Positions 1 to 39,353 of a stretch of 64,000 bases of DNA are shown here, in pieces. The position numbers and the translations under genes are program-made. The stretch lies in contig CAWFDC010000011.1 in assembly GCA_963814545.1 (NCBI GenBank), positions 208,928-272,927 on the forward strand, in the 5' to 3' direction. Positions within the stretch are counted from its first letter, which is position 1; each line of letters opens with the position of its first letter. The notes under the pieces are model-generated. The model was not told where the DNA came from. It searched no databases and saw only the letters and a list, made by a program, of their open reading frames with translations. Source of the stretch: an uncultured Thermoleophilia bacterium (GTDB lineage: Bacteria; Actinomycetota; Thermoleophilia; UBA2241).

Positions 1-779
1 CCATCGGCGTTCTTGAGCTGCGTGCTGACGAGCCCGGTCTCCTTGGCGTAGGCGTACTCGACGTAGCCGATCGCGCCCTTGAGCTGCTGCACGCTGGCGG
101 CCACGCCCTCGTTGCCCTTGCCGCCGACGCCGGTCGGCCAGGCGATCTCCTTGTCGCCGCCCAGCGTCCAGACGTCACCGGCCGCGGCCGCGAGGTAGTT
201 CGTGAAGATCCAGGTCGTGCCCGAGCTGTCCGAGCGGTGCACCACGTTGATCTTGGTGTCGGGGAGCTTGACGCCGTCGTTGTCGGCGGCCAGCGCGGGG
301 TCGTTCCACTTGTCGATCTCGCCGTTGAAGATCTTGGCGACCAGCTCGGCGGTGAGCTTGAGCTCGTTGTTCTCGACGCCGTCGAGATTCACGACGAGGA
401 CGACACCGCCCACGCACTGCGGCCACTGCGTGAGGCCGGCGGCCTGGAGCTCGGACGGCTCGAGCGGCGCGTCGGAGCCGCCGAAGTCGACGGTCTTGGC
501 CGAGATGGCGGAGATGCCGCCGCCGGAGCCGATCGACTGGTAGTTCAGCTTGACGCCGGTGAGGCTGTTGTACTCATTCCCCCACGCCGAGTAGAGCGGA
601 TAGGGGAAGCTCGCCCCGGCGCCGACGATCGAGTTCGCCGTCTCCGCGGCGGGGACCCCGCTGTCCTCGCTACCCTCGCCTTCATCGCCGCACGCCACGA
701 GCGCCAGCGCGAAGACCGCGAGGAGCACTGCGAGAGCGGCGGCCGCGATCGTGCGCCACCGGCGACTGGACTTCCTCAT
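1..779 (-). CDS. pstS: Phosphate ABC transporter substrate-binding lipoprotein PstS (C-terminal end runs off the window)
   Basis: Reverse-strand translation from ATG near 779 reads MRKSSRRWRTIAAAALAVLLAVFALALVACG (lipobox), then ANSIVGAGASFPYPLYSAW, TVDFGGSDAPL and INVVHRSDSSGTTWIFTNYL, the PstS phosphate-binding signatures. RBS AAGGAAGG lies upstream. The ORF is open to the window edge and so is absent from the ORF track. Confidence 0.85.
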   Translation of the reverse strand, partial: MRKSSRRWRTIAAAALAVLLAVFALALVACGDEGEGSEDSGVPAAETANSIVGAGASFPYPLYSAWGNEYNSLTGVKLNYQSIGSGGGISAISAKTVDFGGSDAPLEPSELQAAGLTQWPQCVGGVVLVVNLDGVENNELKLTAELVAKIFNGEIDKWNDPALAADNDGVKLPDTKINVVHRSDSSGTTWIFTNYLAAAAGDVWTLGGDKEIAWPTGVGGKGNEGVAASVQQLKGAIGYVEYAYAKETGLVSTQLKNAD

Positions 780-926
780 CCTGACCTTCCTTTCTCCACG
801 TTCCATGACCCGGAACTACGGCAGGCGCCGCACTCCGGAGGGCAACGCTACCGGCGTCGAGTTAGGGTTCGGTTAGCGCGCGGTCAACGGTGGGCGAGAC
901 GTGGCGCGGGGCCGTGAGGCAGGGCG

Positions 927-2723
927 CTAAGAGGCGGGGTGACGGCGCGGCAGGTGGATCCTGAAGGTGCTGCCGCGGCCGACGACGCTGTCGACCGAGA
1001 CGCGACCGCCGTGGACCTGCGTGACGTGCTTGACGATCGAGAGGCCGAGACCGGTGCCGCCCAGGTCGCGGCTGCGTGCCTTGTCGACCCGGTAGAAGCG
1101 CTCGAAGAGACGCGGCAGGTGCTCGCGCGACACGCCCTGCCCCTCGTCGCTGACGGCGATCACGACCTCGCCGTCGTCGGGCGCCGCGGTGACGCGCACC
1201 GTGGTGCCGTCGGGGCTGTACTTCACGGCGTTGTCGAGCAGGTTCACCACGGCCTGCTCGAGAAGCGGCGGGTTGGCGTCGACGTACATCTCCCGGGGGC
1301 ACTCGACGAGCAGGGTGATGCCCTTCGCCTCCGCCTTGGGGGCGCAGACATCGACGGCGACCGAGAGCACATCGCCGAGCCGCGTCTCCTGAAGATCCAT
1401 GCCCGCTCCCTTGCCCTCCTCGAGCGAAGAGAGGGCGAGGAGATCCTCGATGATCGAGTTCAGACGGTCCGCCTGCCCGGCGATGATCTTGAGGAAGCGC
1501 CGCGCCGCGGCAGGGTCGTCGATGGCGCCGTCGACGAGGGTCTCGGCGAAGCCCTTGATCGAGGTGACCGGCGTCTTCAGCTCGTGCGAGACGTTGGCCA
1601 CGAAGTCGCGCCGCACCGCCTCGAGGCGCCGCAGGCGGGTCACGTCGTTCAGGACGACGACCGCGCCCACGATCTCGCCTCCCTGCGCGTGCAGGAGCGC
1701 CCCGCTCGCCTGCAGGTACTGGTCGCGGCCGCCGACGTGGACGGCCAGGTCGACCTCGACCGGGCCCTGGCCGGAGACGGCGGCCGCGACCACGCGCTGC
1801 AGGTCCGGGTTGCGCACCGCCTCCTCGATCGCCGCTCCCTGCACCTCGACGGGGTCGACGCCGAGCAGCTCGGCGGCAGCCGTGTTCAGCGTGAGGATAC
1901 GAAGTTCGGGGTCGACCGCCAGCACGCCCTCGACCATGCTCTCGAGCACCGCCTCGCGCTCGTTGCGCTCGCGAGTGATGGCGCCCAGCTTCTCGTCGAG
2001 CTCGTCCGCCATGCGGTTGAGACTCTCGGCCACGCCGGCGAACTCCTCGGTCGCCGGTACCGCGAGCTTGAGCGTGAAGTCGCCGGCGGCGAAGCGCTCG
2101 GCGCCCTCACGCACCTCGCGCATCGGCCGCGCGATGCGCCGCGAGACGTACCAGCCGATGACGGCGGCGACCAGGGCGACGAGGACGGCCGTGAGCAGGA
2201 TGGAGCGGGAGAGGCCGTCGACGGCGTCGTCGACGCGACTCAGGCTCATCGCCGTGCGCACCACGGCTACCACCCCGCCGGCGCCCTCGACGGGCACGGC
2301 CACGTACATCATCTCCGTGCCCAGGGTGGCGCTCTCACGTGTCGCGCGCCCGACATCGCCGCTCACCGCCGCCTTGAACTCGGGGCGGTCGCTGTGGCGC
2401 TCGAGCTCCCCGGGAGCCGCCCGCGACTCAGCGACGACCTCGCCGACCGGGGCCCCGGGCAGTCCGTTCGAGATGACCGTGATCCGCGTGCCCGAGACTT
2501 CTCCGAGCCGCCGCACGGTCACCTGCACCGCGGCCTCGTCACCTGCCTCGAGGAGCGGCTCGATCTCGTCGCGCACCAGCGCGGCCCGCGCCTCGAGCTC
2601 GCGCGCCGTCTGGTCGCGATGGAAGTCACTGACGCTGCGCAGGGCGAAGAAGCCGACGCCCGCCGTGCAGAGCACGACGATGATCAGGTAGGTCAGGTAG
2701 ATGCGCCAGAAGAGGTGGCGCAT
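927..2723 (-). CDS. phoR: Sensor histidine kinase, PhoR/SenX3-like (TM, HAMP, PAS, HisKA, HATPase)
   Basis: The 927..2909 ORF contains the H-box VSHELKTPVTSIKGFAETL plus N/G1/G2 ATPase boxes (LLDNAVKYSPDGTTV, DEGQGV, GGTGLGLSIVK). The likely true start is MRHLFWRIYLTYLIIV at ~2723, leaving a 2-nt gap to the upstream regulator stop. It sits downstream of an OmpR-type regulator and next to pstS. Confidence 0.8.
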   Translation of the reverse strand: MRHLFWRIYLTYLIIVVLCTAGVGFFALRSVSDFHRDQTARELEARAALVRDEIEPLLEAGDEAAVQVTVRRLGEVSGTRITVISNGLPGAPVGEVVAESRAAPGELERHSDRPEFKAAVSGDVGRATRESATLGTEMMYVAVPVEGAGGVVAVVRTAMSLSRVDDAVDGLSRSILLTAVLVALVAAVIGWYVSRRIARPMREVREGAERFAAGDFTLKLAVPATEEFAGVAESLNRMADELDEKLGAITRERNEREAVLESMVEGVLAVDPELRILTLNTAAAELLGVDPVEVQGAAIEEAVRNPDLQRVVAAAVSGQGPVEVDLAVHVGGRDQYLQASGALLHAQGGEIVGAVVVLNDVTRLRRLEAVRRDFVANVSHELKTPVTSIKGFAETLVDGAIDDPAAARRFLKIIAGQADRLNSIIEDLLALSSLEEGKGAGMDLQETRLGDVLSVAVDVCAPKAEAKGITLLVECPREMYVDANPPLLEQAVVNLLDNAVKYSPDGTTVRVTAAPDDGEVVIAVSDEGQGVSREHLPRLFERFYRVDKARSRDLGGTGLGLSIVKHVTQVHGGRVSVDSVVGRGSTFRIHLPRRHPAS

Positions 2724-2725
2724 CC

Positions 2726-3427
2726 TCAGTCGTCCCGCAGCCGATACCCCACGCCGCGCACCGTCTCGATGTAGGCGCCGCAGGGGCCGAGCTTGCGCCG
2801 CAGGGAGACGATGTGGACGTCGACCGAGCGGTCGGTGACGAAGCGGTCGGCCACGTAGACGTCGTCGCCCTGCGCGGCGTCGACGATCTGCTGGCGCGTG
2901 AAGACCCATCCGGGCCTGCGGGCGAGGAAGACGAGGATGCGGAACTCGGTCGCCGTGAGGTTGACGGGTACGTCGCCGGCGAGGACCTCGTGCCGGCCCG
3001 GGTGGATGATCAGCTGCCGCACGCGCAGCACGCCGCCCTCGTCGGTCGACTCGGTGTCGCGCCGCAGCACCGCCTTGACGCGGGCGGTGAGCACCCGCGG
3101 GCTGAACGGCTTGGTGACGTAGTCCGACGCCCCGAGCTCCAGCCCCGTGACGATGTCAGCCTCAGTGCCCTTGGCCGTCAGCATGACGATGGGGATGTGG
3201 CGCATCGTCGGGTCGCTCTTCATGCGCCGGCAGACCTCAAGGCCGTCGACACCGGGGAGCATGAGATCGAGGACGACGGCGTCGGGCAGCTTCGTCCGCG
3301 ACGCGGCCAGCGCGTCCTCGCCGGAGGCGACCGCCACGACGGTGTAGCCCTCCTTGGCGAGGTTGTACTTGACCAGCTCGAGGATGTCCTCTTCGTCGTC
3401 GACGACCAGCACGGTCTCGCGTGCCAT
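2726..3427 (-). CDS. phoP: OmpR/PhoB-family response regulator, PhoP/RegX3-like
   Basis: Receiver domain LVVDDEEDILELV ... DAVVLDLMLPGVDG ... TAKGTEADIV with a winged-helix C-terminus (RVGYRLRDD). It is tightly coupled to the kinase. Confidence 0.85.
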   Translation of the reverse strand: MARETVLVVDDEEDILELVKYNLAKEGYTVVAVASGEDALAASRTKLPDAVVLDLMLPGVDGLEVCRRMKSDPTMRHIPIVMLTAKGTEADIVTGLELGASDYVTKPFSPRVLTARVKAVLRRDTESTDEGGVLRVRQLIIHPGRHEVLAGDVPVNLTATEFRILVFLARRPGWVFTRQQIVDAAQGDDVYVADRFVTDRSVDVHIVSLRRKLGPCGAYIETVRGVGYRLRDD

Positions 3428-7541: not shown

Positions 7542-7666
7542 GCCGGTCCTTGATTCGCGGCAACTCTACCCCAAGCGACGGCGCGCGAGATTGAAAGAGC
7601 GGTGGTCGACGGGCCGTCTGAGAGGCCGGCCAGAGCCCGCGGCGCGACGAGTTCGAACACTGTGAC

Positions 7667-8062
7667 GTGATCGTCGTCGGCCGGCAACGCGTGCGGGCGG
7701 TCCGGGACCGCGTCGTCTCGACCGACGAGGCCGCCGGTGTCGCCGAGGTCTTCAGGGTACTCGGCGACCCGGACCGCTGCCGCCCGACCGTGACGCCGAT
7801 CGAGGCCGGCGAGCTCCGCGTCTGCGACATCACCGCCACCTGGGACATGACAGAGTCCGACGTGTCGCATCATCTGCGACTGCTGCGCGACCACGGCACC
7901 GTCAAGGGCCGGCGAGGGGGCCTAATGGTCTTCTGCTCGCCTGACGACGACCACATCAGCCTCTTGCCCAGGCCGGCTCGCGACCACCTGCGACACGGAG
8001 AGGACGCGTCGTGGGCGAGAACCCGCAACAGGACAAGGCTGCACTGCGACGGCGGCGTGTAG
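7667..8062 (+). CDS. ArsR/SmtB-family metalloregulator, degenerate C-terminus
   Basis: VFRVLGDPDRCR...ELRVCDITATWDMTESDVSHHLRLLRDHGTV is a match to the ArsR HTH with the CVC-like metal site. It is divergent from mntH. The TAG stop at 8060-8062 is in the same frame as the downstream ATPase fragment. Confidence 0.6.
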   Translation: MIVVGRQRVRAVRDRVVSTDEAAGVAEVFRVLGDPDRCRPTVTPIEAGELRVCDITATWDMTESDVSHHLRLLRDHGTVKGRRGGLMVFCSPDDDHISLLPRPARDHLRHGEDASWARTRNRTRLHCDGGV

Positions 8063-8329
8063 CGCCGGGAGATCGAGAGCCGTCACCGCGTCGTCGGGCG
8101 GCCCGAACTGCCCGGCGCGGCCGACGACCCGCGCCTGCACGAGGCATACGGCAGCGTGGCCATGGTCGGCGACGGCGTCAGCGACGCGCCAGCCCTCGCC
8201 ATGGCCATCAAGACCGTATCCCGCGTGTTCGCCCCGTTCGGCCTCACGAGCCCGCGGCGCGCAGTCTTCGCCACCATGGGCACGTCGCTGCTGGTGACCG
8301 CCAGCGGCCTGCGGCTGGCCCGCGGCTGA
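8063..8329 (+). pseudogene. Remnant (C-terminal ~90 codons) of a heavy-metal P-type ATPase
   Basis: The translation HEAYGSVAMVGDGVSDAPALAMA is the P-type ATPase hinge motif GDGxNDxPAL. It is followed by FGLTSPRRAVFATMGTSLLVTASGLRLARG, which resembles the final TM helix. There is no N-terminal domain, phosphorylation site or ATP-binding domain, and the frame continues from the ArsR ORF across a TAG. Confidence 0.6.
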
Positions 8330-8415: not shown

Positions 8416-10035
8416 CTACTCCACGTCCACGAAGATCGGGTTCGAGTAGAACCAGAGGTCGGCCCAGCAGCGCTCGTCGTCGTTGAGCGTCGGGTTCTCG
8501 GCCGTCCCGAGCGTCTGTGTCTCGTCCGACCACTCCAGGTAGTCGGCCAGCGGGTTGCCGAGCTCGTCGGTCTGGCCGGGCTCGTTGATGGGCTGGTTCG
8601 TGCCGCGCAGGCGGTAGTACGTGTCCTTGTCGGCGGAGGCCACCGTGTAGGTGACGACGTTCCAGCCGTACTCGTCGACCTCCCACTCATCGGCGTCGAA
8701 GCTGGCCACGATGGCCGTGGTGTCGTTCGTTCGCTTGGTCGTGTACTCCCGGTCCTTCGGTGTGTACTTCTCGCCGACCTCGCCGGCGATCAGGTCGACG
8801 TGGTCGACCTCCGGGTTGTCGCCGTGGTTGTTGAGCTCGTCGGGATCCCTGAACTTGATCGTGATCGTGTAGCTCTCATCCTCGTCGACCGCCAAGGTGC
8901 CGCCCATGGTCGCCGAATCCGCACCATAGCTCGCCCGGAAGTCGAGGCCGTCGATCAGCTGGCCCTCGACCGAGAACGAGTTGCCCGACCTGAGACCGGC
9001 GATGATGCCCTCCCAAGAGAAGTCTTCGACCCAGGTGTAGTCCTTGGAGTACTCGCCGGGCCAGAACTCCTCTTCGGTGTTGTGGAAGTCGGAGTCGCTG
9101 AACATCCACCACTCACGACCCTCGCCGAGCAGCGAGTCCCAGAGGCCGCCGACCTGGGCGACCATGTAGTCGGCGCCGCCGTAGGTGCGCGCCTCGAGCA
9201 GGATGCGGGGCCAGTCGATGACGCGGTCGGCCTTCTTGGTCTTCTTCGACGGCTCGACGTAGATGTCGTCGGCGTCGTAGCCGCCGCGCATCGGCAGCTC
9301 CTTCTGCGAGCCGGGGATGCCGCAGAAGCCGAAGGCGACGTCGGGAGCGGCGTCGTTGAACTCCCGGAGCTGGCCGACCGTCCACTTGAGCGCCCGCGAC
9401 GGATGGCTGGTGATGGCGTAGGTCTCGCCGGCGTAGTTCTCCTGCAGCCAGGTGACGGCGGCGATCGAGCCCGACCACTTGGTGTTCTGCTTGGTCAGCA
9501 GTTCGCCGGTCACCGCGCGGTCTCCGGCGCGGCTCGTGTCGAGATCGAGCTTGTCGAACATGTACTCGAAGTCGCTCATCGCGAACGGCTCATCGCCGAT
9601 GATGCCGACCTTGGCCTCATCCGCGGTGTGCACGCCCCACTCCAGACCCTGGAGGAGAAGCTTCTTCGGGTAGTCAGCCCGCAGGCCTTCCAGCACGGGC
9701 CAGCCGTAGTCGTACTCACCGGTCGGATCTGTCAGCAGCATCTCCCACATCCAGACCTGCACGGGCATGTGAGCCCCGAGCGCGTCTCTCCAGTGGTCGC
9801 CGCCGTGGTCGGCGGTCGCCATCCAGTCGAGCTCGCCGAGGGTGAACGCCTGCCCGAACGTCACGGGCATGGGCTCGTCGCCGTCCGACATCGTGGTGTG
9901 GTTGTGGTGGTCGCCGGTCACCCACTGGCCGAACGCCATGGCGTTCGGCGCCGCGGCCGCCAGCAGCAGCAGGATCAGCGCGGCGCCGAGCACCACCCAT
10001 CGCCACCTCAGAACGGATACGACTGACTCACTCAT
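8416..10035 (-). CDS. Secreted PHP-domain (polymerase/histidinol-phosphatase-like) metallo-phosphoesterase family protein, paralog A
   Basis: Start MSESVVSVLRWRWVVLGAALILLLLAAAAPNAMA is a signal peptide, preceded by RBS AAGGGGGT. It is followed by GDHHNHTTMSDGD (PHP motif I HxH...SDG) and MATADHGG (motif II). The protein is about 538 aa and ends ADLWFYSNPIFVDVE. It is 70-75% identical to the downstream paralog. Confidence 0.55.
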   Translation of the reverse strand: MSESVVSVLRWRWVVLGAALILLLLAAAAPNAMAFGQWVTGDHHNHTTMSDGDEPMPVTFGQAFTLGELDWMATADHGGDHWRDALGAHMPVQVWMWEMLLTDPTGEYDYGWPVLEGLRADYPKKLLLQGLEWGVHTADEAKVGIIGDEPFAMSDFEYMFDKLDLDTSRAGDRAVTGELLTKQNTKWSGSIAAVTWLQENYAGETYAITSHPSRALKWTVGQLREFNDAAPDVAFGFCGIPGSQKELPMRGGYDADDIYVEPSKKTKKADRVIDWPRILLEARTYGGADYMVAQVGGLWDSLLGEGREWWMFSDSDFHNTEEEFWPGEYSKDYTWVEDFSWEGIIAGLRSGNSFSVEGQLIDGLDFRASYGADSATMGGTLAVDEDESYTITIKFRDPDELNNHGDNPEVDHVDLIAGEVGEKYTPKDREYTTKRTNDTTAIVASFDADEWEVDEYGWNVVTYTVASADKDTYYRLRGTNQPINEPGQTDELGNPLADYLEWSDETQTLGTAENPTLNDDERCWADLWFYSNPIFVDVE

Positions 10036-10242
10036 CAGAACCCCCTTCTTGTGACGTACGCCCGCGTCCGACCACGCAACGCAGCGTTCGCGCCGCGGCC
10101 GTGACCGGCCGCATCCCCTCTGCCGCTCTTGTCGGCGAGCGACGTGCCCGCACTGCCACTCATGCCGCCCACATCTACTGGCGGAAGAGTTCGACAGTAC
10201 GCCCAATACTACGTCGCTACAATACCGAGACGCCTAGCCGAG

Positions 10243-10264
10243 TGTCAACACTTGACAGTAGACA
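10243..10264. promoter_or_regulatory. Operator-like palindrome site A: TGTCAACACTTGACAGTAGAC
   Basis: An inverted repeat TGTCAA-N3-TTGACA sits about 208 bp upstream of the PHP gene A start. It belongs to the GACTGTCGACAGTC motif family seen at seven other promoters. Confidence 0.5.
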
Positions 10265-10359
10265 CCGCGTGCCGGAGAGGGGTCGACCGCGTCGGGCGCG
10301 AGCAGGCCTTCTGTCGAGTCCAGCGGCGCCCTCTCGAACCGGGCCCGCGGGGGAGGCGA

Positions 10360-10391
10360 CGAGGGAGGGCGCCGTCCGGCGCCCTCCCTCG
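10360..10391 (-). terminator. Perfect GC hairpin CGAGGGAGGGCGCC-gtcc-GGCGCCCTCCCTCG downstream of PHP gene B
   Basis: A 14-bp perfect inverted repeat lies 30 nt after the 10422 stop. It is paralogous to the hairpin at 8355. Confidence 0.55.
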
Positions 10392-10421
10392 TCGTTCGAT
10401 GCTTGTTCGCTGGGGTCGTGC

Positions 10422-12008
10422 TCAGTCCACGTCCACGAAAATCGGGTTCGAGTAGAACCAGAGGTCGGCCCAGCAGCGCTCGTCGTCGTTGAGCGTCGGG
10501 TTCTCGGCGGTGCCGCCGTCCTCCAGGTAGTCGGCCAGCGGATTGCCGAGCTCGTCGGTCTGGCCGGGCTCGTTGATGGGCTGGTTGGTGCCGCGCAGGC
10601 GGTAGTACATGTCCTTGTCGGCTGCGGCCACCGTGTAGGTGACGACGTTCCAGCCGTCCTCGACCACCCACTCGCTCGAGTCGAAGCTCGCGGCGATGGT
10701 CGTGGTGCTGTTGGTGTCCTTGGTCAGGTACTCCTTGTCCCGCGGGATGTAGCGCTTGCCGACCTCGCCGGCGATCAGGTCGACGTGGTCGACCTCCGGG
10801 ACGTCGCCGTGGTTGTTGACCGCCGGGCTCTTGAACTTGATGGTGATCGTGTAGCTCTCGTCGTCGTCGACCTCGAGGGTGCCGCCCATGGGGGCCGTGG
10901 CCTCACCGTCGCTCGCCCGGAAGTCGAGGCCGTCGATCAGCTGGCCCTCGACCGAGAACGAGTTGCCGGAGCGCAGGCCGGCGATGATGCCCTCGGCCGT
11001 ATAGCTATCGACCCAGGTGTGGTCCTTGGAGTACTCGCCGGGCCAGAACTCCTCTTCGGTGTTGTGGAAGTCGGAGTCGCTGAACATCCACCACTCACGA
11101 CCCTCGCCGAGCAGCGAGTCCCAGAGGCCGCCGACCTGGGCGACCATGTAGTCGGCGCCGCCGTAGGTGCGCGCCTCGAGCAGGATGCGGGGCCAGTCGA
11201 TGACGCGGCTGGCCTTCTTGTTCTTCGACACGACGTAGATCTCGTCCTCGTCGTAGCCGCCGCGCATCGGCAGCTCCTTCTGAGAGCCGGGGATGCCGCA
11301 GAAGCCGAAGGCGACGTCGGGAGCGGCGTCGTTGAACTGCCGGAGCTGGCCGACCGTCCACTTCAGCGCCCGCGACGGGTGGCTGGTGATGGCGTAGGTC
11401 TGGCCGGCGTAGTTCGCCTGCAGCCAAGAGACGGCGGCGAGCGAGCCCGTCCAGCTCGTGTTCTGCTTGGTCAGCAACTCGCCGGTAACTGCGGACTCTC
11501 CGGCGCGGCTCGTGTCGAGATCGAGCTTGTCGAACATGTACTCGAAGTCGCTCATCGCGAACGGCTCATCACCGATGATGGCGACCTTGGCCTCGTCGGC
11601 GCTGTCGACACCCCACTCGCAACCCTGGAGGACGACCTTGTCCGGATACGCGGCGCGCTGGGTCAACAGCACGGGCCAACCGTAGTCGTACACACCGGTC
11701 GGGTCGGTCAGGAACATCTGCCACATCCACACCGAGGCGGGGAGCTTCACGCCCAGCGCGTCCTTCATCGACAGGCCACCGTGGTCGGCACTCGCCATCC
11801 AGTCGAGCGCGCCGATGCCGAAGGCGTGTTCCACCAACTCGGGGAACGTAGCGTCACCGTCGGACATGCGCGTGTGACTGTGGTGGTCACCGGTCACCCA
11901 CTGACCGGCCAAGGCGTCGGGAGCGGCCGACGCTAGCGCCACCAAGAGCAGCACCACTGCGAGGGCGAGCCATCGCCACCTGACTAAGGATGCTAACGAT
12001 TGAGCCAC
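10422..12008 (-). CDS. Secreted PHP-domain metallo-phosphoesterase family protein, paralog B
   Basis: A GTG start is preceded by the strong RBS AAGGAGGGGG. The signal peptide is MAQSLASLVRWRWLALAVVLLLVALASAAPDALA, followed by GDHHSHTRMSDGD and MASADHGG. The C-terminus ERCWADLWFYSNPIFVDVD is nearly identical to paralog A. Confidence 0.55.
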   Translation of the reverse strand: MAQSLASLVRWRWLALAVVLLLVALASAAPDALAGQWVTGDHHSHTRMSDGDATFPELVEHAFGIGALDWMASADHGGLSMKDALGVKLPASVWMWQMFLTDPTGVYDYGWPVLLTQRAAYPDKVVLQGCEWGVDSADEAKVAIIGDEPFAMSDFEYMFDKLDLDTSRAGESAVTGELLTKQNTSWTGSLAAVSWLQANYAGQTYAITSHPSRALKWTVGQLRQFNDAAPDVAFGFCGIPGSQKELPMRGGYDEDEIYVVSKNKKASRVIDWPRILLEARTYGGADYMVAQVGGLWDSLLGEGREWWMFSDSDFHNTEEEFWPGEYSKDHTWVDSYTAEGIIAGLRSGNSFSVEGQLIDGLDFRASDGEATAPMGGTLEVDDDESYTITIKFKSPAVNNHGDVPEVDHVDLIAGEVGKRYIPRDKEYLTKDTNSTTTIAASFDSSEWVVEDGWNVVTYTVAAADKDMYYRLRGTNQPINEPGQTDELGNPLADYLEDGGTAENPTLNDDERCWADLWFYSNPIFVDVD

Positions 12009-12206
12009 GAGATCCCCCTCCTTCTCCTGTAGGGCTCCTGCGACAGACCGCGCCGCGCAGCGTCGGCGCTGCGGTGGCGGTCGGCCGCACCCCCCCTGCC
12101 GCTCTCTTCCTGGGCGAGCGACATACCCACACTGCGCTGCTCAAGGCTCCACACTGCAGCAGGGACGCAAGAGTCGCGCGCTGCGCCCTCAGAGTGCGTC
12201 GCCACA

Positions 12207-13374
12207 CTACCGACTGGATTGTCGACTGTCAACACTCAGCCGTCGAACGGACGATCCGCGACGGGCGGGAGCGGGTGGATGTACCCCTGGCGCGGGGCAG
12301 TGTGACGACTCCCGACGCCGGACGCCAAAGAGGCAGGCCGGGCGGCGGCGCACGCTGCGCTGCGCCGCCCGGCCTGCCTGTTGGCGCAGTCTGATGCTCA
12401 TCTTGCCCGACTTGATGACGCCCCACATCCACTCCGTCATCGCCTGCTGCTCGGCGATCAGGTCGTACCGGGTCTCGCCGCTCACGACGAGGCCGCCACA
12501 CTCGTGGTCGACGGTAAGGACCTTGTCCCGGCTCAGGATGCCGAGGACCGCCTCGGTGAGCTGCGGCAGCATCGGCTGCTTGCGGACGGCCTCCTCTTCC
12601 TCACGGTCGAGCGTGTAGGCGAGGACGTTCTTGCCGATGATGCCGTACATCTTGTCAGGCCAGACGCCGCTTCTGAGGTAGGGCCTGAGTCCCCTGAAGT
12701 CGTTCACGTACGTGACGCCAGGCTGATCCATGAGGATCGACGACGAGCCCCAGCCGCCACTGAACAGCGCCTCGGTGCCCGGGTCGTCGGGGTCCGTGTC
12801 CTGGTCCCTCAGCTGCTCGGTGATAGACACGTCGCCGCCGTCCTCCACGAGGGAGGCGAACACCGCCGGCGTCGCGTCCGAGAGCTCGAGATCGGTGACA
12901 AGGCCGGTGGCCTTGCCGACCGACTCGGCGCGCTCGAGGACGGTCTCCCACTCCTCGATCTCGCCGCTTGCCGGACTCGGGCCCATCGCGACCCAGTCGT
13001 TCCATGTCGTCATGCCCGTCGAGAGCCGTCCCTCCGGCCGCGACGTCAGTGACTGCCGTGTCGTCGGACAGAGAATCGTCAGGGTCGCCGAGCGACCTCG
13101 TGTCGGTGTTGCCCTCGCCGCCCCACGGTATGTCGTCGATCAGCAGCGAGCCGCCGTTGAGTTGCCGGCCGACCTCGAGGTGGTCGACGGCCATGCCGTC
13201 ACCGATGAAGAGCATCACGTTGTCGACGCCCTCGAGCGGCGACGATTCCGGGACCGGGCCGGCAGCAGCCGCCTTGCCCTACCCGGCGGCCAGCCCGACG
13301 GCGGTGAGCAGTGCGAGGGAGGTGACCACCGCCACGACGACCCCGAGACCGGAACGCTGATGATGCCCGCTCAT
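12207..13374 (-). pseudogene. phoA: Alkaline phosphatase (PhoA family) decayed: in-frame TAG, frameshift, active-site Ser replaced, C-terminus truncated
   Basis: The signal peptide MSGHHQRSGLGVVVAVVTSLALLTAVGLAAG is followed immediately by TAG (~13279). Next come NVMLFIGDGMAVDH (the E. coli IILLIGDGMG region) and VTDVAAGGTAL where E. coli has VTDSAASATAW, so the Ser nucleophile is Val. A frame switch near 13015 leads to GKATGLVTDLELSDATPAVFASLVE and GDVSITEQLRD, which match PhoA. The ORF ends soon after LTVDHECGG. Confidence 0.6.
12217..12235. promoter_or_regulatory. Operator-like site B: GATTGTCGACTGTCAACAC
   Basis: Tandem TGTCGAC and TGTCAAC heptads lie about 210 bp upstream of the PHP gene B start and directly after the phoA remnant. 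Confidence 0.5.
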
Positions 13375-13578
13375 CGCTTCCCTCTTCCCCTTGGCGCCGC
13401 GCATCCGGCGAAGCGGCGAGCATAGGTTCACGACACTCGCAGCGCTACGCGCAGACTTCCGATTCGGCAAGGAACGCGACACCGGCGCCTCCTTCGGCAC
13501 CGGCACGACCCGCCGTGAGAATGTCACCCGCGCTGCCCTGAGCCGACCTTGGCCATCTCGCGGTGCCCGCCCCCGCCC

Positions 13579-14079
13579 TCAGGCCGAGGCCGCCTCCTTG
13601 TCCATCTTGTCGACCTTCAGGTCGACGGCGAGCACGTGCGGGTTCTGGCAGAAGGCGATGCACTGGGGCTCGCCGTCGCAGAGGTCGCACTTGAAGGCGA
13701 CCTGCCTGTCGGGGTGCTCGTGGATGACCCCGGTGGGGCAGACCTCGTAGCACTCGCCGCAGTTCGTGCACTTCGCCTCGTCGACCGTGAGCACGTAGCC
13801 CTTGACGACCTCGCCGTGCTTCGCCTTGCCCGGGTAGTCGCCCTTGACGGTGACCGTGATCTCCTTCGTCACGATGGCGTCCTCGGGGCAGGCCTCCTGG
13901 CACTTGGCGCAGGCGGTCTGCAGGCAGGTGTGACCGCGGATCTTGCCGGTCGTCGGGTTGACCTCGGAGAACAGGCGGGCGACCGAGGGCCGGTAGGCGC
14001 CCTCGTGCTGGGCCGAGCAGGCGAGCTCGCACATGTGGCAGCCGGTGCACTTCTTCGAGCTGATCATCACGTGAGGCAT
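13579..14079 (-). CDS. Poly-[4Fe-4S] ferredoxin-like protein, probable electron-transfer partner of the oxidoreductase
   Basis: Start MPHVMISSKK has RBS GAAGGGAAG. Four Cys clusters are present: CTGCHMCELAC, CAKCQEACP, CTNCGECYEVCP and CDLCDGEPQCIAFC. It lies immediately downstream of the oxidoreductase. Confidence 0.75.
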   Translation of the reverse strand: MPHVMISSKKCTGCHMCELACSAQHEGAYRPSVARLFSEVNPTTGKIRGHTCLQTACAKCQEACPEDAIVTKEITVTVKGDYPGKAKHGEVVKGYVLTVDEAKCTNCGECYEVCPTGVIHEHPDRQVAFKCDLCDGEPQCIAFCQNPHVLAVDLKVDKMDKEAASA

Positions 14080-24367: not shown

Positions 24368-24826
24368 CTACTCCTCACCCCTGAGCTTCTTCATCGCCGC
24401 CTTGACGGCGTCGCTGTCGACCGCCAGCTCGACGAAGCCGATGCGCTCGTCGTAGATCGCCGGGTCGACCTGCTCGCGCAGGTCGTCCTCGAAGATGTGC
24501 ACCACGGGGAGTCCCAACTGGACCCCTGCCAATGGACCGACGTAACTCGGGTCGCCTTCGGTGACCGTCTCGGCGACCATCTCGAGTCCCTCGAGATCGG
24601 CCGCCCCGAGCACCACCACCAGGTCGTCAGTGCCGTACCGCTCCACCGTCGACTTGATGCGACCCTGGTTCTCTGGGTCCATCGCTCCCGCCGCCGTTCA
24701 GACGAAGCACTCCGTCTCGATCATGACGACGTCGGCGCCCGCCGTGCGGACACAGTCGGCGATCGCCTCTCCCGAGACGCTGTCGCGCTCGCCCAGGGCG
24801 ATCACCTTCTTGCCCTTGAGATCCAT
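24368..24826 (-). CDS. grdA: Glycine/sarcosine/betaine reductase complex selenoprotein A (GrdA); in-frame TGA at 24698..24700 read as selenocysteine
   Basis: From ATG ~24826 (RBS GGAGG): MDLKGKKVIALGERDSVSGEAIADCVRTAGADVVMIETECFV-TGA-TAAGAMDPENQGRIKSTVERYGTDDLVVVLGAAD...GPLAGVQLGLPVVHIFEDD...KLRGEE. This is colinear with GrdA (CFV-U-TAAGAMD). The ORF track shows only the post-UGA part (24368..24682). Confidence 0.75.
24661..24679 (-). other. Candidate bacterial SECIS hairpin for grdA: GACCC-AGAGAACCA-GGGUC on the mRNA
   Basis: A stem-loop begins about 19 nt 3' of the UGA codon, the position expected for a SelB-binding element. Confidence 0.4.
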
Positions 24827-25150: not shown

Positions 25151-26467
25151 TCACACCTCCACGATCACGGAGACCGCATCCCACATCTGGGTCATGCGGC
25201 CGAGGAACAGACTGCCCTTCGCCATCAGCATCGTCGACGTCAGCTCGCCACGCGCGAAGCGATCCAGGGCATGCGGGATCCAGGGCACCGCTGAGGCGAT
25301 ATGGCCCTGGGTCGGCGAGAAGCCGGGCAGGCCGCGACGACGACAGAAGTCGTTCATCTCGTCGCGGCCCAGCTCGCCGCGCGTCACGGCGAGGGCCGCC
25401 AGCAGCTTGTAGTTGCGCTCCGGCACGTCGTAGCCGCCGGCCGGCTCGGTGATCTCCGGGTTGTGGAGCTCCGTCGAGTACACGTCGATGTCGGCCACCT
25501 TGCGCCCGAGCTTGTCGAGCGGCACGCCGACGACCTCCTTGAGCAGCGACTGCTGCGAGGAGTCGCTGCCGATACGGTGCTGACCCACGGCGTCGAGCCG
25601 CAACCGGGGGCGTCGCCGCCGGCCGGCCCCACGCAGGACGGCCATGCCGGCGAGCACGTCCTCGAGCACGGGCACGCCCCGGTCGAGAGTGCCCTTGAAC
25701 TTCATGCCGAGCTTGGCCAGCGACCCGCCGGCGACCACCACGACGCGCTCGAAGGTGCCGGACTCGACGAGCGCGCCGGCCATGATGAGAGCGTGCACCG
25801 GGCTGGTGCAGAAGGCCTTCACGTCGCTGCCGTTGGCGTTCACGAGGCCGCAGCACTCGGCGATCGCCTTGGCGAGCGCGCCGCCGCCGCGGTTGTAGCG
25901 GTCTCCCACCGCCTCTTCGCCGGCGCCGATCGCGTACCGGATCGACTCGGGGTCGACACCCGAGTGGGCCAGCATGGCGCGCAGCGCGTGCACCCCGCCC
26001 GCCTTGCAGGAGAGGTTCTCGAGCAGGGCGTGGGCGCTGAGCGCCGCGTCCTCGTCGTGGGCGCGCACGAACGCGCCCACGACCTCGCCACCGTCGAAGA
26101 GCGTCAGATCGCCTCTGTCGGGGCGTGCCTCCTCGCCCAGGCGCACGAGGTCGAAGAGGTCGACCTCGTCCATCAACTCGTAGAAGGAGCGCTGGTCGGC
26201 GATGTCGCCGTACGGTCCGGCCGCCGGGGCGGAACCGTCGATCCCCTCCCACCAGGGCCGCTCGCGGCTCCACAGCTCCTCGGGCCTGAGGTTGCCGATG
26301 AACGCCTGGTTCGGGGCGTAGCCGCAGGCCTGCTCGAACGTTCGCAGCTTGTCCTGCACGGTCGCGAACTTCTCGGCCTCGCGCGCCGGCTTGGAGCCGA
26401 AGCGCACCAGGTCCGGCACGTGGTCCAACACGAACGACGCGGCTAGGATCCCGGCACGCCGCGTCAC
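25151..26467 (-). CDS. Putative glycine reductase complex protein C subunit (GrdC/GrdD-like, thiolase/KAS-like fold)
   Basis: A continuous 438-aa ORF sits between grdB and trxA. The thiolase-like segment DVKAFCTSPVHALIMAGALVESGTFERVVVVAGGS suggests protein C. Its stop abuts the trxA ATG. Assignment is by operon context and motif only. Confidence 0.45.
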   Translation of the reverse strand: MTRRAGILAASFVLDHVPDLVRFGSKPAREAEKFATVQDKLRTFEQACGYAPNQAFIGNLRPEELWSRERPWWEGIDGSAPAAGPYGDIADQRSFYELMDEVDLFDLVRLGEEARPDRGDLTLFDGGEVVGAFVRAHDEDAALSAHALLENLSCKAGGVHALRAMLAHSGVDPESIRYAIGAGEEAVGDRYNRGGGALAKAIAECCGLVNANGSDVKAFCTSPVHALIMAGALVESGTFERVVVVAGGSLAKLGMKFKGTLDRGVPVLEDVLAGMAVLRGAGRRRRPRLRLDAVGQHRIGSDSSQQSLLKEVVGVPLDKLGRKVADIDVYSTELHNPEITEPAGGYDVPERNYKLLAALAVTRGELGRDEMNDFCRRRGLPGFSPTQGHIASAVPWIPHALDRFARGELTSTMLMAKGSLFLGRMTQMWDAVSVIVEV

Positions 26468-26507
26468 GGTCCCACTCGCAGGTCCTCGCTCGCGCGGCCT
26501 CCGTCAC

Positions 26508-27788
26508 TCACTCTCGTTCCTCCCATACGGTCCGCGGCTGTACGTCCGTCTCGAGCATGGAGACGGCGCGCTCCACGATGCGGCGCCGCAGCACGCGCTC
26601 GTCGGCGGCGCCGAGACCGGGCTCGCCCACCGGGTTCGTGACGGCGACCCCGCGCAGCGTTCGGTTCGTCCCGACCATGGTCGCGATCGTCGGGAGCGCC
26701 GTGATGAACACCGTCGGTATCCCCGCACGCTCGATCTCCTTGCTCAGCGTTGCCCCGCAACGCGTGCCCGTCCCTCAGGTGCCCGTGAGGATCACCGCCT
26801 GGATGCCCGCGTCGCGCAGGCGCAGCGCGATCTCCTGTCCGAACTTCGCCGCCGTGGCCACCGGGGTCGAGTTGCCGGTCGTGGTGTAGAGCGTCTCGTG
26901 CAGCGCACCGATCCGTCCCTCGCCCAGCAGGCTGCGGACGGCGTCGAGCGGCACGAGACGGTCGGGGTCGGCGTTGGCGATGCTCGTGTCGTAGCCGCCG
27001 TGCACCGTCTCCCAGCTCTCCGGCTCGAGGCCGGCCAGGCCGTCGAGAGGGTAGGCGAACCACGCGTGCGCGCGGTTCGATTCGAGGCGGTCCGGGTTGC
27101 CCTTCGGCACCAGACCGGACTCGGTGACCAAGGCCACGGTCGCCGCGGCGACGTCCGCGAGCGGCGGCGGCGGCGGGACGTCGTCGAACGCCGCCGTCAC
27201 CTCGGTACGGACGTCCCCGGAGAGCTTGGCGAGCAGCAGTTCGACCGCGCGCTGTGCGCCGGTGAGCTCGGCGCGCTCGTTGCGCCGCAGGCCGCGGGGG
27301 AGATAGCCCTCCTCGTCGGGCGGCCCCAGAGTCTCTCCGGCCGCCAGCCGGCGCGCCAGGACCGCCATCCGCGGCAGCGCGTCGCGCATGCCCTTCACCG
27401 TGATGTCGGTCGGCACGATGTAGGCGGCGCCCTCGGCGGCGAGCACTCCGGGGCTCTCCGGATGCATGCCGCAGACCGCGGGTACGCCGCCGCGCGCCGC
27501 CTCGCGCGCGAGCGCGCCGCAGGCGTAGCCGTAACGGCCCGAACCGAACGACGGCCCGCAGACGAGCACGTCGGGCTGCTCCTCGCCGAGCCAGCGCAGG
27601 AGCTGCGCGAGCGCGTCTTCTTCGTGCTCCCCGAAATAGTCATCGCCGCACACGAGGGTGACGGCGACGTCGAGACCGAGACCCTTCCCGGGCCCAACGG
27701 CGCCCTCCCGGCGCACCGGCTCCGTGTCCGCAGCCTCCTCGCCGCCGAGACCGGCGAAGAACTGGTTCACGTAGTGCACGACCTTCAC
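26508..27788 (-). CDS. grdB: Glycine reductase selenoprotein B (GrdB); in-frame TGA at 26775..26777 read as selenocysteine
   Basis: A GTG start overlaps the grdE stop (GTGA). MKVVHYVNQFFAGLGGEEAAD is the canonical GrdB N-terminus. The frame continues across TGA: ...AVILTGT-U-GTGTRCGATLSKEIERAGIPTVFITALPTIATMVGTNR...WEERE. The pieces appear as two ORFs in the track (26775..27926 and 26508..26711). Confidence 0.75.
26747..26763 (-). other. Candidate bacterial SECIS hairpin for grdB: GCGUUGC-GGG-GCAACGC
   Basis: A perfect 7-bp stem with a G-rich apical loop starts 11 nt 3' of the UGA, matching bacterial SECIS spacing. Confidence 0.5.
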
Positions 27789-29065
27789 CACGACACCGCC
27801 CGCAGGTGCATGTCCCCCATCTGGCAGAGCGCCCCCAGGTAGGTGACCGTCGGCACCGGGCCGGCTTCGTCGGCCGGGCGGCCAGCCCAGGTGCGGCGCC
27901 CGCCGACCACACGCTGCGGGCGCCACTCCGGCACCAGTTCCTCCTCGTTGCCGACGCTTACGATGCAGTCCGCCTCGGGCACGTGGTCGGTGAGACCGCC
28001 GTTCGTCTCGGCGAAGAGCACGACGGTACGGATGCCGAGGCGTTCGCAGGCACGGCAGGTGAGCACGGTGTCAGTGTGCGAGTTGCCCGTCTGGAAGGTC
28101 GTCAGAACGGCCGCCTCGGCTCCGACCTGACGGGCGAGCTTGGCGGCCATCAGCGCCGAGCGCTCCTTGTCGAAGGCGGAGGGAAGGTAGCCGAGCGTGA
28201 GGATCACGCCGCAGAAGCACAGGTCGACTCCGTGTCGGCGCAGCAGTTCGCGCAGCAGGCTGCTGCGCTGGAAGAAGTAGGTGGGATCGCGCACTCCGGC
28301 CCAGTCGTACTGCCCCGCGGTGAGCGCGCCGTCGAGCACCTCGCGCGCGTCGAGGAGCGTCGGCACCAGGCCGTTGAGAGGCCGACCGTAGAGGTACGTG
28401 TCGACGAGCGGGCCCTCTGAGGCCACCTGCAGGATGACGCACACTCGCGGCAGGTCGCCGGAGACGGGCGGTAGGTCGAGAAGATCGACGCGGTCGGGCG
28501 GCGCGTCCAGCGTGCTCGCCGCCAGGTCGCGAGCGACGCGCAGGGTCACCCGTCGGAGCGCGGCGTCCGCTTCGGCCGGCGGCGCCGCGGGGTCGCACTC
28601 ATAACTCAACACGACGTTCTGGGTGGCCGACCAGCGGGTGAGCTCGGCAGCGGGACCTGCCATGTCGACGAACGAGTCGCCATCGGGATAGACGTCGAGA
28701 CTCGTCACATCGTAGGTGCCGTGGAAGTCGGCAGTCGCCAGAACGGCGACCCCCTCGAGGCGGTGGGTCCCCCCGGCGCCCGCCACCGTCAGTGCGCCGA
28801 GCGCACCGGGGAAGGTCGTCGCGGGCTCGTCCGTCTTGACCGTCGGCTCGACGGCGTCGAGGACGTTGAGCACACGCACGGACTCGCCCGGCCGCACGAG
28901 CGTGACGCTCATCCCGAGCAGGCCTGGCTCACCGGCCGCCGCCTCCTCGAGGCCGGCCGTATCTACGGTCAGGACGCCGTCGCGCCACGAGGTCTCGGCG
29001 CCCGCCACCACGTCGTTCACCGCGAACGCGGCGAGCTCCAACGGCGGTGCGGACGTGGTGGGCAT
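27785..29065 (-). CDS. grdE: Glycine reductase protein B proprotein (GrdE-like, alpha/beta subunit precursor)
   Basis: This 426-aa ORF is translationally coupled to grdB. It has the upstream position typical of grdE in grd operons, and RBS GGAGG before the ATG at ~29065. Called mainly by context. Confidence 0.5.
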   Translation of the reverse strand: MPTTSAPPLELAAFAVNDVVAGAETSWRDGVLTVDTAGLEEAAAGEPGLLGMSVTLVRPGESVRVLNVLDAVEPTVKTDEPATTFPGALGALTVAGAGGTHRLEGVAVLATADFHGTYDVTSLDVYPDGDSFVDMAGPAAELTRWSATQNVVLSYECDPAAPPAEADAALRRVTLRVARDLAASTLDAPPDRVDLLDLPPVSGDLPRVCVILQVASEGPLVDTYLYGRPLNGLVPTLLDAREVLDGALTAGQYDWAGVRDPTYFFQRSSLLRELLRRHGVDLCFCGVILTLGYLPSAFDKERSALMAAKLARQVGAEAAVLTTFQTGNSHTDTVLTCRACERLGIRTVVLFAETNGGLTDHVPEADCIVSVGNEEELVPEWRPQRVVGGRRTWAGRPADEAGPVPTVTYLGALCQMGDMHLRAVSW

Positions 29066-29086
29066 ACGGTCGCCTCCAGATGCAGA

Positions 29087-29110
29087 GCGTCGACTGTCGA
29101 CAGTCTACGG
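29087..29110. promoter_or_regulatory. Operator-like site D: perfect 14-bp palindrome GACTGTCGACAGTC (29092..29105) flanked by GTCGAC/GTCTAC
   Basis: It lies 27-40 bp upstream of the grdE ATG, in the 62-bp gap between ltaE and grdE. Confidence 0.55.
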
Positions 29111-39334: not shown

Positions 39335-39353
39335 ACTGTCGACTGTCAACAAC
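39335..39353. promoter_or_regulatory. Operator-like site G: GACTGTCGACTGTCAACAA
   Basis: It lies 48-66 bp upstream of the decarboxylase ATG. Confidence 0.5.

Follow-up and report, generated by a model that had tools for sequence, protein, structure and literature searches.

In the 64,000-nucleotide stretch analysed here (the window; contig CAWFDC010000011.1, from a metagenome-assembled genome of an uncultured soil bacterium of the actinobacterial class Thermoleophilia), the locus at 12392..13374 on the minus strand is very probably a pseudogene without function, derived from a gene for a secreted alkaline phosphatase (AP) of the PhoA type. The relic descends from the AP encoded at the same locus in sister genomes, after the genes for aldehyde:ferredoxin oxidoreductase (AOR) and ferredoxin and before two genes for PHP-fold metallohydrolases. 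It can no longer make an enzyme because a TAG stop codon follows the signal peptide, the remaining open reading frame (ORF) is leaderless, the nucleophilic serine is a valine, the phosphate-binding arginine is gone and four metal ligands have been deleted. Same-locus copies are intact in two sister loci (L001 and L005) and interrupted by one TAG in a third (L002), and the substitutions of the window copy show no purifying selection. The enzyme family is a known one, and the pseudogene is an ordinary case at an advanced stage of decay. The features of the relic are as follows.

12392..13374, minus strand: remnant of a PhoA-family AP of the signal-peptide type, with ~327 recognisable codons compared with ~437-473 in intact relatives.
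13281-13279, minus strand: in-frame TAG right after the signal peptide, 31 codons from the ATG; the codon is TCG (Ser) in L002 and CCC (Pro) in L001.
~13089-13054, minus strand: 12 codons, GDPDDSLSDDTA, in place of the two codons 'DG' of the relatives, from DNA and protein alignments.
13044-13042, minus strand: nucleophile codon GTC (Val), changing DSAAGG to DVAAGG; TCG in L001 and L002, Ser in L005.
13025..13027, minus strand: frameshift by a 2-nt deletion in the Ala codon after GGT (ACT GCG CTC TCG to ACG G CTC TCG); an orphan G remains at 13026.
12849-12835, minus strand: HVEDRD changed to LVED-GG, with a 3-nt deletion; H185L and D190G (alignment columns) are specific to the window.
Junction 12522/12521, minus strand: 156-nt in-frame deletion of the segment DGFFxMIExGSNDWGGHARD...GDTLI, from DNA and protein alignments.
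12383..12392, minus strand: end of homology at KSGKMSI (~12392); the last ~280 nt of coding sequence before the old terminator are deleted.
12382-12328, minus strand: the former AP gene's terminator, a retained GC-rich hairpin formed by an inverted repeat (-63.5 kcal/mol, z -5.3).
13375..13578, minus strand: former AP upstream region, from alignment with relatives.

The original prediction, made on the same DNA, had described a decayed AP gene with a signal peptide followed by TAG, PhoA-family blocks and a nucleophile position reading VTDVAAG, and all of these are present. The start codon lies at 13374-13372 and the signal-peptide-like N-terminus reads MSGHHQRSGLGVVVAVVTSLALLTAVGLAAG. Past the TAG the reading frame continues unshifted through LFIGDGMA and VTDVAAGG and then switches; the blocks LFIGDGMA, GLVTDLELSDATPAVFASLVE and GDVSITEQL are readily recognisable. 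Alignment to the PhoA profile, proposed beforehand as a check, gave 72.8 bits for the conceptually repaired relic against Pfam PF00245 (Alk_phosphatase; cut-off 24.4, E 3.5e-20), in a match that spans only profile positions 3-122 of 423. A frame switch, predicted near 13015, does exist and is placed here at the orphan G at 13026. The predicted shortfall at the C-terminus also holds (~95 residues are missing), but the ORF does not terminate soon after LTVDHECGG: homology runs past this block to KSGKMSI and the frame stays open to 12207.

Residues of the relic are numbered here as in E. coli PhoA, a correspondence that we take from motif spacing and textbook knowledge and not from a direct alignment with the E. 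coli protein. Serine occupies the nucleophile position in every intact AP-domain sequence aligned, and the valine codon of the relic differs from the serine codon at all three bases (GTC compared with TCG). By motif spacing, the change of HVEDRD to LVED-GG removed the equivalents of His162 and Arg166. The 156-nt deletion took out 52 amino acids, among them the equivalents of Glu322, Asp327 and His331, and the 3' loss of ~95 codons includes the GDHT block with the equivalent of His412. The GDPDDSLSDDTA replacement is a net gain of 30 nt (10 codons) directly ahead of the active-site motif; a local duplication was rejected as its origin, there being no supporting repeat. In all, at least seven independent lesions have hit the window copy; three of them, the 156-nt deletion, the loss of the Arg166 equivalent and the 10-codon net insertion, are absent from the original prediction. 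Six of the 11 catalytic positions are lost and four of the nine metal ligands are deleted (the Glu322, Asp327, His331 and His412 equivalents), while the equivalents of Asp51, Asp153/Thr155 and the Asp369/His370 motif are retained. The relic is therefore without the Ser nucleophile, without Arg166 and a complete set of metal ligands, and without a single uninterrupted frame headed by an export signal.

Searches of public proteins returned 77 AP relatives, one of which is the window's own 268-aa ORF (P0001); the others include a set of 437-470 aa. The best intact relative, P0002 (437 aa, locus L001), matches the relic with E 1e-107. Relatives with flanking sequence were L001 (P0002) and L002 (P0014), while L003 to L005 came from a genome scan queried with the PHP-fold gene pair. 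L006 is a second contig from the sample of L002. The flanking DNA of six loci differs by 6-9%, and these six loci are probably sister species. Gene order is common to the window, L001, L002 and L005: ABC transporter, AOR, ferredoxin, AP, PHP, PHP, Nramp, Usp. The state of the locus is as follows.

L001: AP intact, 437 aa; two adjoining PHP-fold genes.
L005: AP intact; two PHP-fold genes, both frameshifted in the assembly.
L002: AP with one TAG (GGS*LIDD), the rest complete; two PHP-fold genes.
L006: AP with the TAG of L002; at least one PHP-fold gene (the locus ends early).
Window: AP heavily decayed; two PHP-fold genes.
L003: no trace of AP between ferredoxin and PHP; one PHP-fold gene.
L004: no trace of AP between ferredoxin and PHP; two PHP-fold genes, one at only ~55% identity.

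The relic shares 74-76% protein identity with the same-locus AP of L001, L002 and L005 in global alignment, and 74% with the intact AP of L001 (P0002) and L005 across 296-310 shared columns. An earlier figure of 56-60% from local tblastn, which would have indicated strong divergence, was rejected as an artefact of the indels; the global value is within the range of the intact copies. The relic and the L001 and L005 proteins have in common their position at the locus, gene order, type of signal peptide and the blocks LFIGDGMA, GLVTDLELSDATPAVF, LAYTLDREEE, DHECGGLVV and TEWMWG. By contrast, the L001 and L005 genes are uninterrupted, where the window copy is broken by the TAG and the frameshift, and they keep DSAAGG, HVxDRD, MIExGSNDWGGH, GDHT and the full C-terminus, all of which are lost in the window. 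P0002 aligns with the solved APs of Vibrio (3e2d/6t26), Halomonas (3wbh), the Antarctic strain TAB5 (2w5v) and E. coli (1alk) with E values of 1e-40 to 1e-29. Compared with these solved PhoA-type enzymes, the relic has Val at Ser102, has lost Arg166 and has had Glu322, Asp327, His331 and His412 deleted.

L002 is the closest relative of the window by flanking sequence. Its AP gene (9668-11089; 2668-4089 in L006) resembles the relic in its MSGHHQR signal peptide, its DQxxDxxDPG insertion and its interruption by an in-frame TAG. It differs in that the TAG stands at another codon, where the other copies have CTG, and in having kept its full length and all the catalytic motifs. The window and L002 share no lesion, which means that the inactivating mutations were independent. 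Change at codon positions 1 and 2 of the L002 AP is nevertheless raised (3.4-3.7%, compared with 0.3-0.7% in controls), which fits a relaxation of selection that began before either lesion. The truncated 362-aa ORF of L006 was found again in one further run. As a separate observation, L002 and L006 differ by 1.4% in AOR and by 1 nt of 1,422 in AP, which suggests recent transfer or a sweep of the inactivated allele, or cross-talk between assemblies.

Given that the indels distort local identity values, the case for neutral evolution of the relic rests on lineage-specific changes and their codon positions. Changes specific to the window AP fall at codon positions 1, 2 and 3 in the numbers 12/20/16, so that 67% are at positions 1 and 2, compared with 41-49% in the other AP lineages (Fisher p = 0.0115) and with 27/16/75 in five flanking genes of the window lineage (p = 0.0005). 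With a single taxon set (the window, L001, L002 and L005) and 1,529 control codons, the window-specific rates are 4.05/6.76/5.41% per codon position in AP and 0.39/0.07/2.81% in the controls, and at the protein level 7.43% and 0.33%, respectively, i.e. protein-level changes are ~20 times commoner in the relic than in the flanking genes. The 22 window-specific amino-acid changes include replacements in columns common to the other three genomes, such as the nucleophile S to V, H to L, TADHE to TVDHE and QPTLPQ to QPMLPQ. The flat spread over codon positions, together with the raised protein-level change, indicates that the relic has been neutral for a long time.

If the lesions were errors of long-read sequencing or assembly, the organism would have an intact AP. 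The following points favour this explanation. L003 to L005 derive from entries named uncultured Thermoleophilia bacterium, isolates MFDxxxxx, of the Microflora Danica long-read catalogue, which was made from Nanopore reads alone by Flye assembly and a single round of Medaka polishing (PMC12313526). Judging from contig naming and a nearly identical gene order, the window probably belongs to the same data set. Frameshifted conserved genes occur in L004 and L005 as well, and against L001, L002 and L003 the conserved neighbours of the relic in the window carry 11 single-base insertions and one single-base deletion, as listed below.

16567, 16721, 16729, 16849: ABC ATPase, four single-base insertions.
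17213, 17889: permease 2, one single-base insertion and one single-base deletion.
20404, 20628, 20774, 20909, 20938: 244-aa gene (hyp244), five single-base insertions.
6050: Usp, one single-base insertion.

The four genes concerned show no excess of substitutions. Their indels resemble the errors of long-read metagenome assemblies, yet they are strongly clustered, unlike a uniform error. Since such indels occur in well-conserved neighbours, a lone frameshift in data of this kind proves nothing. The error explanation is nonetheless very unlikely to account for the relic. A clean 156-nt in-frame deletion, a 280-nt 3' deletion that ends at the terminator and a 30-nt insertion are beyond the reach of single-base errors, and so are a Ser to Val codon with three base differences and 22 window-specific amino-acid changes in a flat pattern. 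The flanking AOR, PHP and Nramp genes are free of indels; full-length alignments without a frameshift were obtained for the PHP genes, permease 1 and the binding protein. The same ORF boundaries were also recovered independently, in a Logan assembly made from a different run and seen in two samples. By gene calls, its 1,891-bp contig is colinear with the window and carries, spaced as they are there, the ferredoxin stop (window 13579), a 41-aa ORF closed by the TAG and an exact copy of the 268-aa ORF. To see whether the neighbouring frameshifts recur in other assemblies, the AOR protein of the window and a fused 527-aa transporter ORF were looked up as exact sequences; neither is on public record, probably owing to the choice of start codon. 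The locus is a guide to telling decay and noise apart, true decay being marked here by large deletions, a flat codon-position pattern and recovery in a second assembly, and noise by single-base insertions without excess substitutions.

Several points weigh against the reading of the locus as a decayed gene. The lesions are read from assembled sequence. The named relatives are themselves Nanopore-only Flye assemblies with a single round of Medaka, and the 2-nt frameshift, taken alone, could be a sequencing error. The intact AP copies are only 74-83% identical among themselves, and fast, mosaic evolution of AP explains part of the divergence of the window copy. The best-supported splits of the flanking sequence join the window with L002 and L003 with L004, but the tree, built on a mosaic signal, has no outgroup and hence no root, and the absence of AP from L003 and L004 could be either loss or the ancestral state. 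Even so, with at least seven lesions, a neutral codon pattern, intact relatives at the same locus and an independent assembly, the prediction of a decayed AP gene is well supported.

The relic might still be of use, either as a leaderless, non-catalytic protein of 268 aa or at full length through read-through of the TAG combined with a shift of frame. The frame switch is 13 nt upstream of an ATG at 13013, from which the 268-aa ORF stays open to 12207, and public records list this ORF as a protein (P0001). Recoding of stops elsewhere in the organism is indicated by in-frame TGA codons in the grdA and grdB glycine reductase genes. Residual function is, however, scarcely credible. The ORF has neither a signal peptide nor half of the fold core, and its last ~60 residues are translated from the terminator hairpin, through which this spurious frame passes, and from intergenic DNA as far as 12207, so that 12207-12391 is not AP-derived coding sequence. 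A read-through product would still be without the Ser, the Arg and the four metal ligands, and the window-specific changes look neutral. Recoding of the TAG itself was ruled out, as TAG is the normal stop in conserved neighbours (the window's genes for AOR, PHP and the solute-binding protein close with it just where their homologues end), and as the window's selenoprotein genes rely on TGA, the codon for selenocysteine, and not on TAG. P0001 should accordingly be flagged as a pseudogene product and not be counted as phosphatase capacity for soil phosphorus metabolism; beyond annotation, the importance of the locus is small.

The glycine/sarcosine/betaine reductase genes lie on the minus strand at 24368-24697 and upstream, 25151-26503, 26508-28070 and 27785-29104. 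Both GrdA and GrdB are broken in two by an in-frame TGA. The Pfam match of GrdA starts at profile position 42, right after the stop, and that of GrdB ends at the stop and is followed by an 88-aa continuation. Judged from these matches, the two TGA codons fit selenocysteine codons in a Thermoleophilia genome. No SECIS or other Rfam match was found anywhere in the window.

The neighbours of the relic on its downstream side are two intact PHP-fold genes; on its other side is the ferredoxin/AOR pair. The original prediction had placed the relic between the PHP paralogs, which is incorrect given that both lie on one side.

10422-12008, minus strand: the first of the two secreted PHP-fold metallohydrolase paralogs; 528 aa, intact, with 91% identity to the counterpart in L001.
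8416-10035, minus strand: second PHP-fold paralog, 539 aa, intact.

Assignment to the PHP fold is based on the N-terminal His-x-His metal motif GDHHSHT, in which D41, H43 and H45 (D-x-H-x-H) are invariant in 38 relatives, and on an AlphaFold model (pLDDT 89.8) that includes a C-terminal beta-sandwich domain; the top Foldseek matches of the model are the PHP proteins 3e38 and 2anu (probability 1.0, E 1e-6). Among sequence profiles, the NCBIfam CehA/McbA metallohydrolase model gives E 1.5e-16 and 60.7 bits, under its cut-off of 80, and Pfam PHP only E 0.026. A sequence search of the family against solved structures gave no match, and the family has no characterised relative by sequence. Of its more than 800 relatives almost all are annotated as hypothetical, with CehA/McbA family metallohydrolase as the other name in use; dockerin or cohesin (cellulosome) modules occur in some clostridial members.

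These neighbours had led the original prediction to propose enzyme replacement in the Pho regulon, i.e. that AP was lost as the two adjoining PHP-fold hydrolases took over phosphate scavenging. In favour of this, the PHP proteins are secreted, intact and strongly conserved and their fold is common to metal-dependent phosphoesterases, and a PstS-like protein and a PhoR-like kinase are encoded ~10 kb away. The proposal is unsupported by the comparison of loci: L001 and L005 combine an intact AP with both PHP copies, and L003, without AP, has a single PHP copy, which means that duplication of the PHP gene is not tied to loss of AP. Nor is there a PHO-box-like repeat close to the AP or PHP genes. 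The actinobacterial PHO-box pattern has 5 matches in the window compared with 4.06 expected, none near AP or PHP, although this consensus may not be that of the Thermoleophilia. The PHP family, moreover, is without a member characterised by sequence and is mostly hypothetical and sometimes fused to cellulosome modules. Replacement therefore appears improbable. A broader version, in which AP was lost repeatedly and independently among closely related soil Thermoleophilia species while secreted PHP enzymes with a conserved promoter and a ~200-nt leader supplied the same function, is likewise improbable; if true, replacement by PHP enzymes would provide a first function for a PHP-fold family that is uncharacterised and numbers more than 800 members.

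When the larger candidate ORFs of the 64-kb window were surveyed with Pfam, no second PhoA and no PhoD or PhoX was found; a PstS-like binding protein, a PhoR-like kinase and a HAD hydrolase were identified. The PstS-like phosphate-binding protein (PBP_like_2; 3-815, minus strand) adjoins the PhoR-like kinase with HAMP, PAS, HisKA and HATPase domains (927-3155, minus strand), and one weak PHO-box-like repeat (871-888) is found just upstream of the binding-protein gene. This pair, ~10 kb from the relic, is the sole phosphate-regulon signal of the window.

AP seems to be a dispensable accessory gene in this clade, being intact in two genomes, interrupted by one nonsense codon in one, decayed in the window and absent from two, and the locus presents one gene at several stages of loss in sister species. 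Selection on AP would have relaxed in the lineage from which the window and L002 descend, after which the window copy would have gathered substitutions at the neutral rate together with deletions. The 3' deletion may have halted at the terminator hairpin, and the retained hairpin probably still shields the promoter of the PHP genes from upstream transcription. By eye, similar hairpins of the form GGCCGGGCGGCG...CGCCGCCCGGCC follow the AP stop in L001 and L002. A scan of 11900-13700 for consensus promoters and terminators found none, the hairpin having no U-tract of the required length. Upstream, the relatives have a candidate promoter TTGCCG-17-TAGGGT, which reads TTGCCG-17-TAGCGC in the window, and the last T of the candidate -10 element appears, on sequence grounds, to have been lost there.

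The PHP-fold genes have upstream elements of their own. Nearly all are preceded by a promoter-like element consisting of TGTTGACAGTCGACA, a 17-nt spacer and TAGTGT or TATTGT, followed by a conserved GC-rich, multi-stem leader of ~200 nt that ends at the ribosome-binding site. Leaders occur at 12008-12240 and 10036-10255 (minus strand) in the window, at 11865-12087 and 13836-14054 in L001, and at 14719 in L002, 9772 in L003, 8095 in L004 and 9786 in L005. The leader of the first copy in L002 is shorter and divergent, and the second copy in L004 has none. RNAalifold on eight close leaders gave conserved stems, with a compensatory change in only 1 of 39 pairs, and an Rfam scan of the whole window, PHP leaders included, gave no match. 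The leader is a possible regulatory RNA.

A second variable or eroding gene is found at the AP locus. A heavy-metal P-type ATPase of 802 aa is encoded beside an ArsR-type regulator in L001, L003 and L004 and is missing from the window, where a comparison of 7622-8329 with L001 15727-18548 revealed a weak 111-aa similarity at 8132-8305; only fragments remain in L002.

The motif TGTTGACAGTC(G/T)A of the PHP promoters recurs in the window at 39351 and 32318 (starts of the motif on the minus strand), and an inverted copy is present upstream of the saccharopine dehydrogenase gene of L002. The motif could be a strong promoter in common use in this lineage, or an operator.

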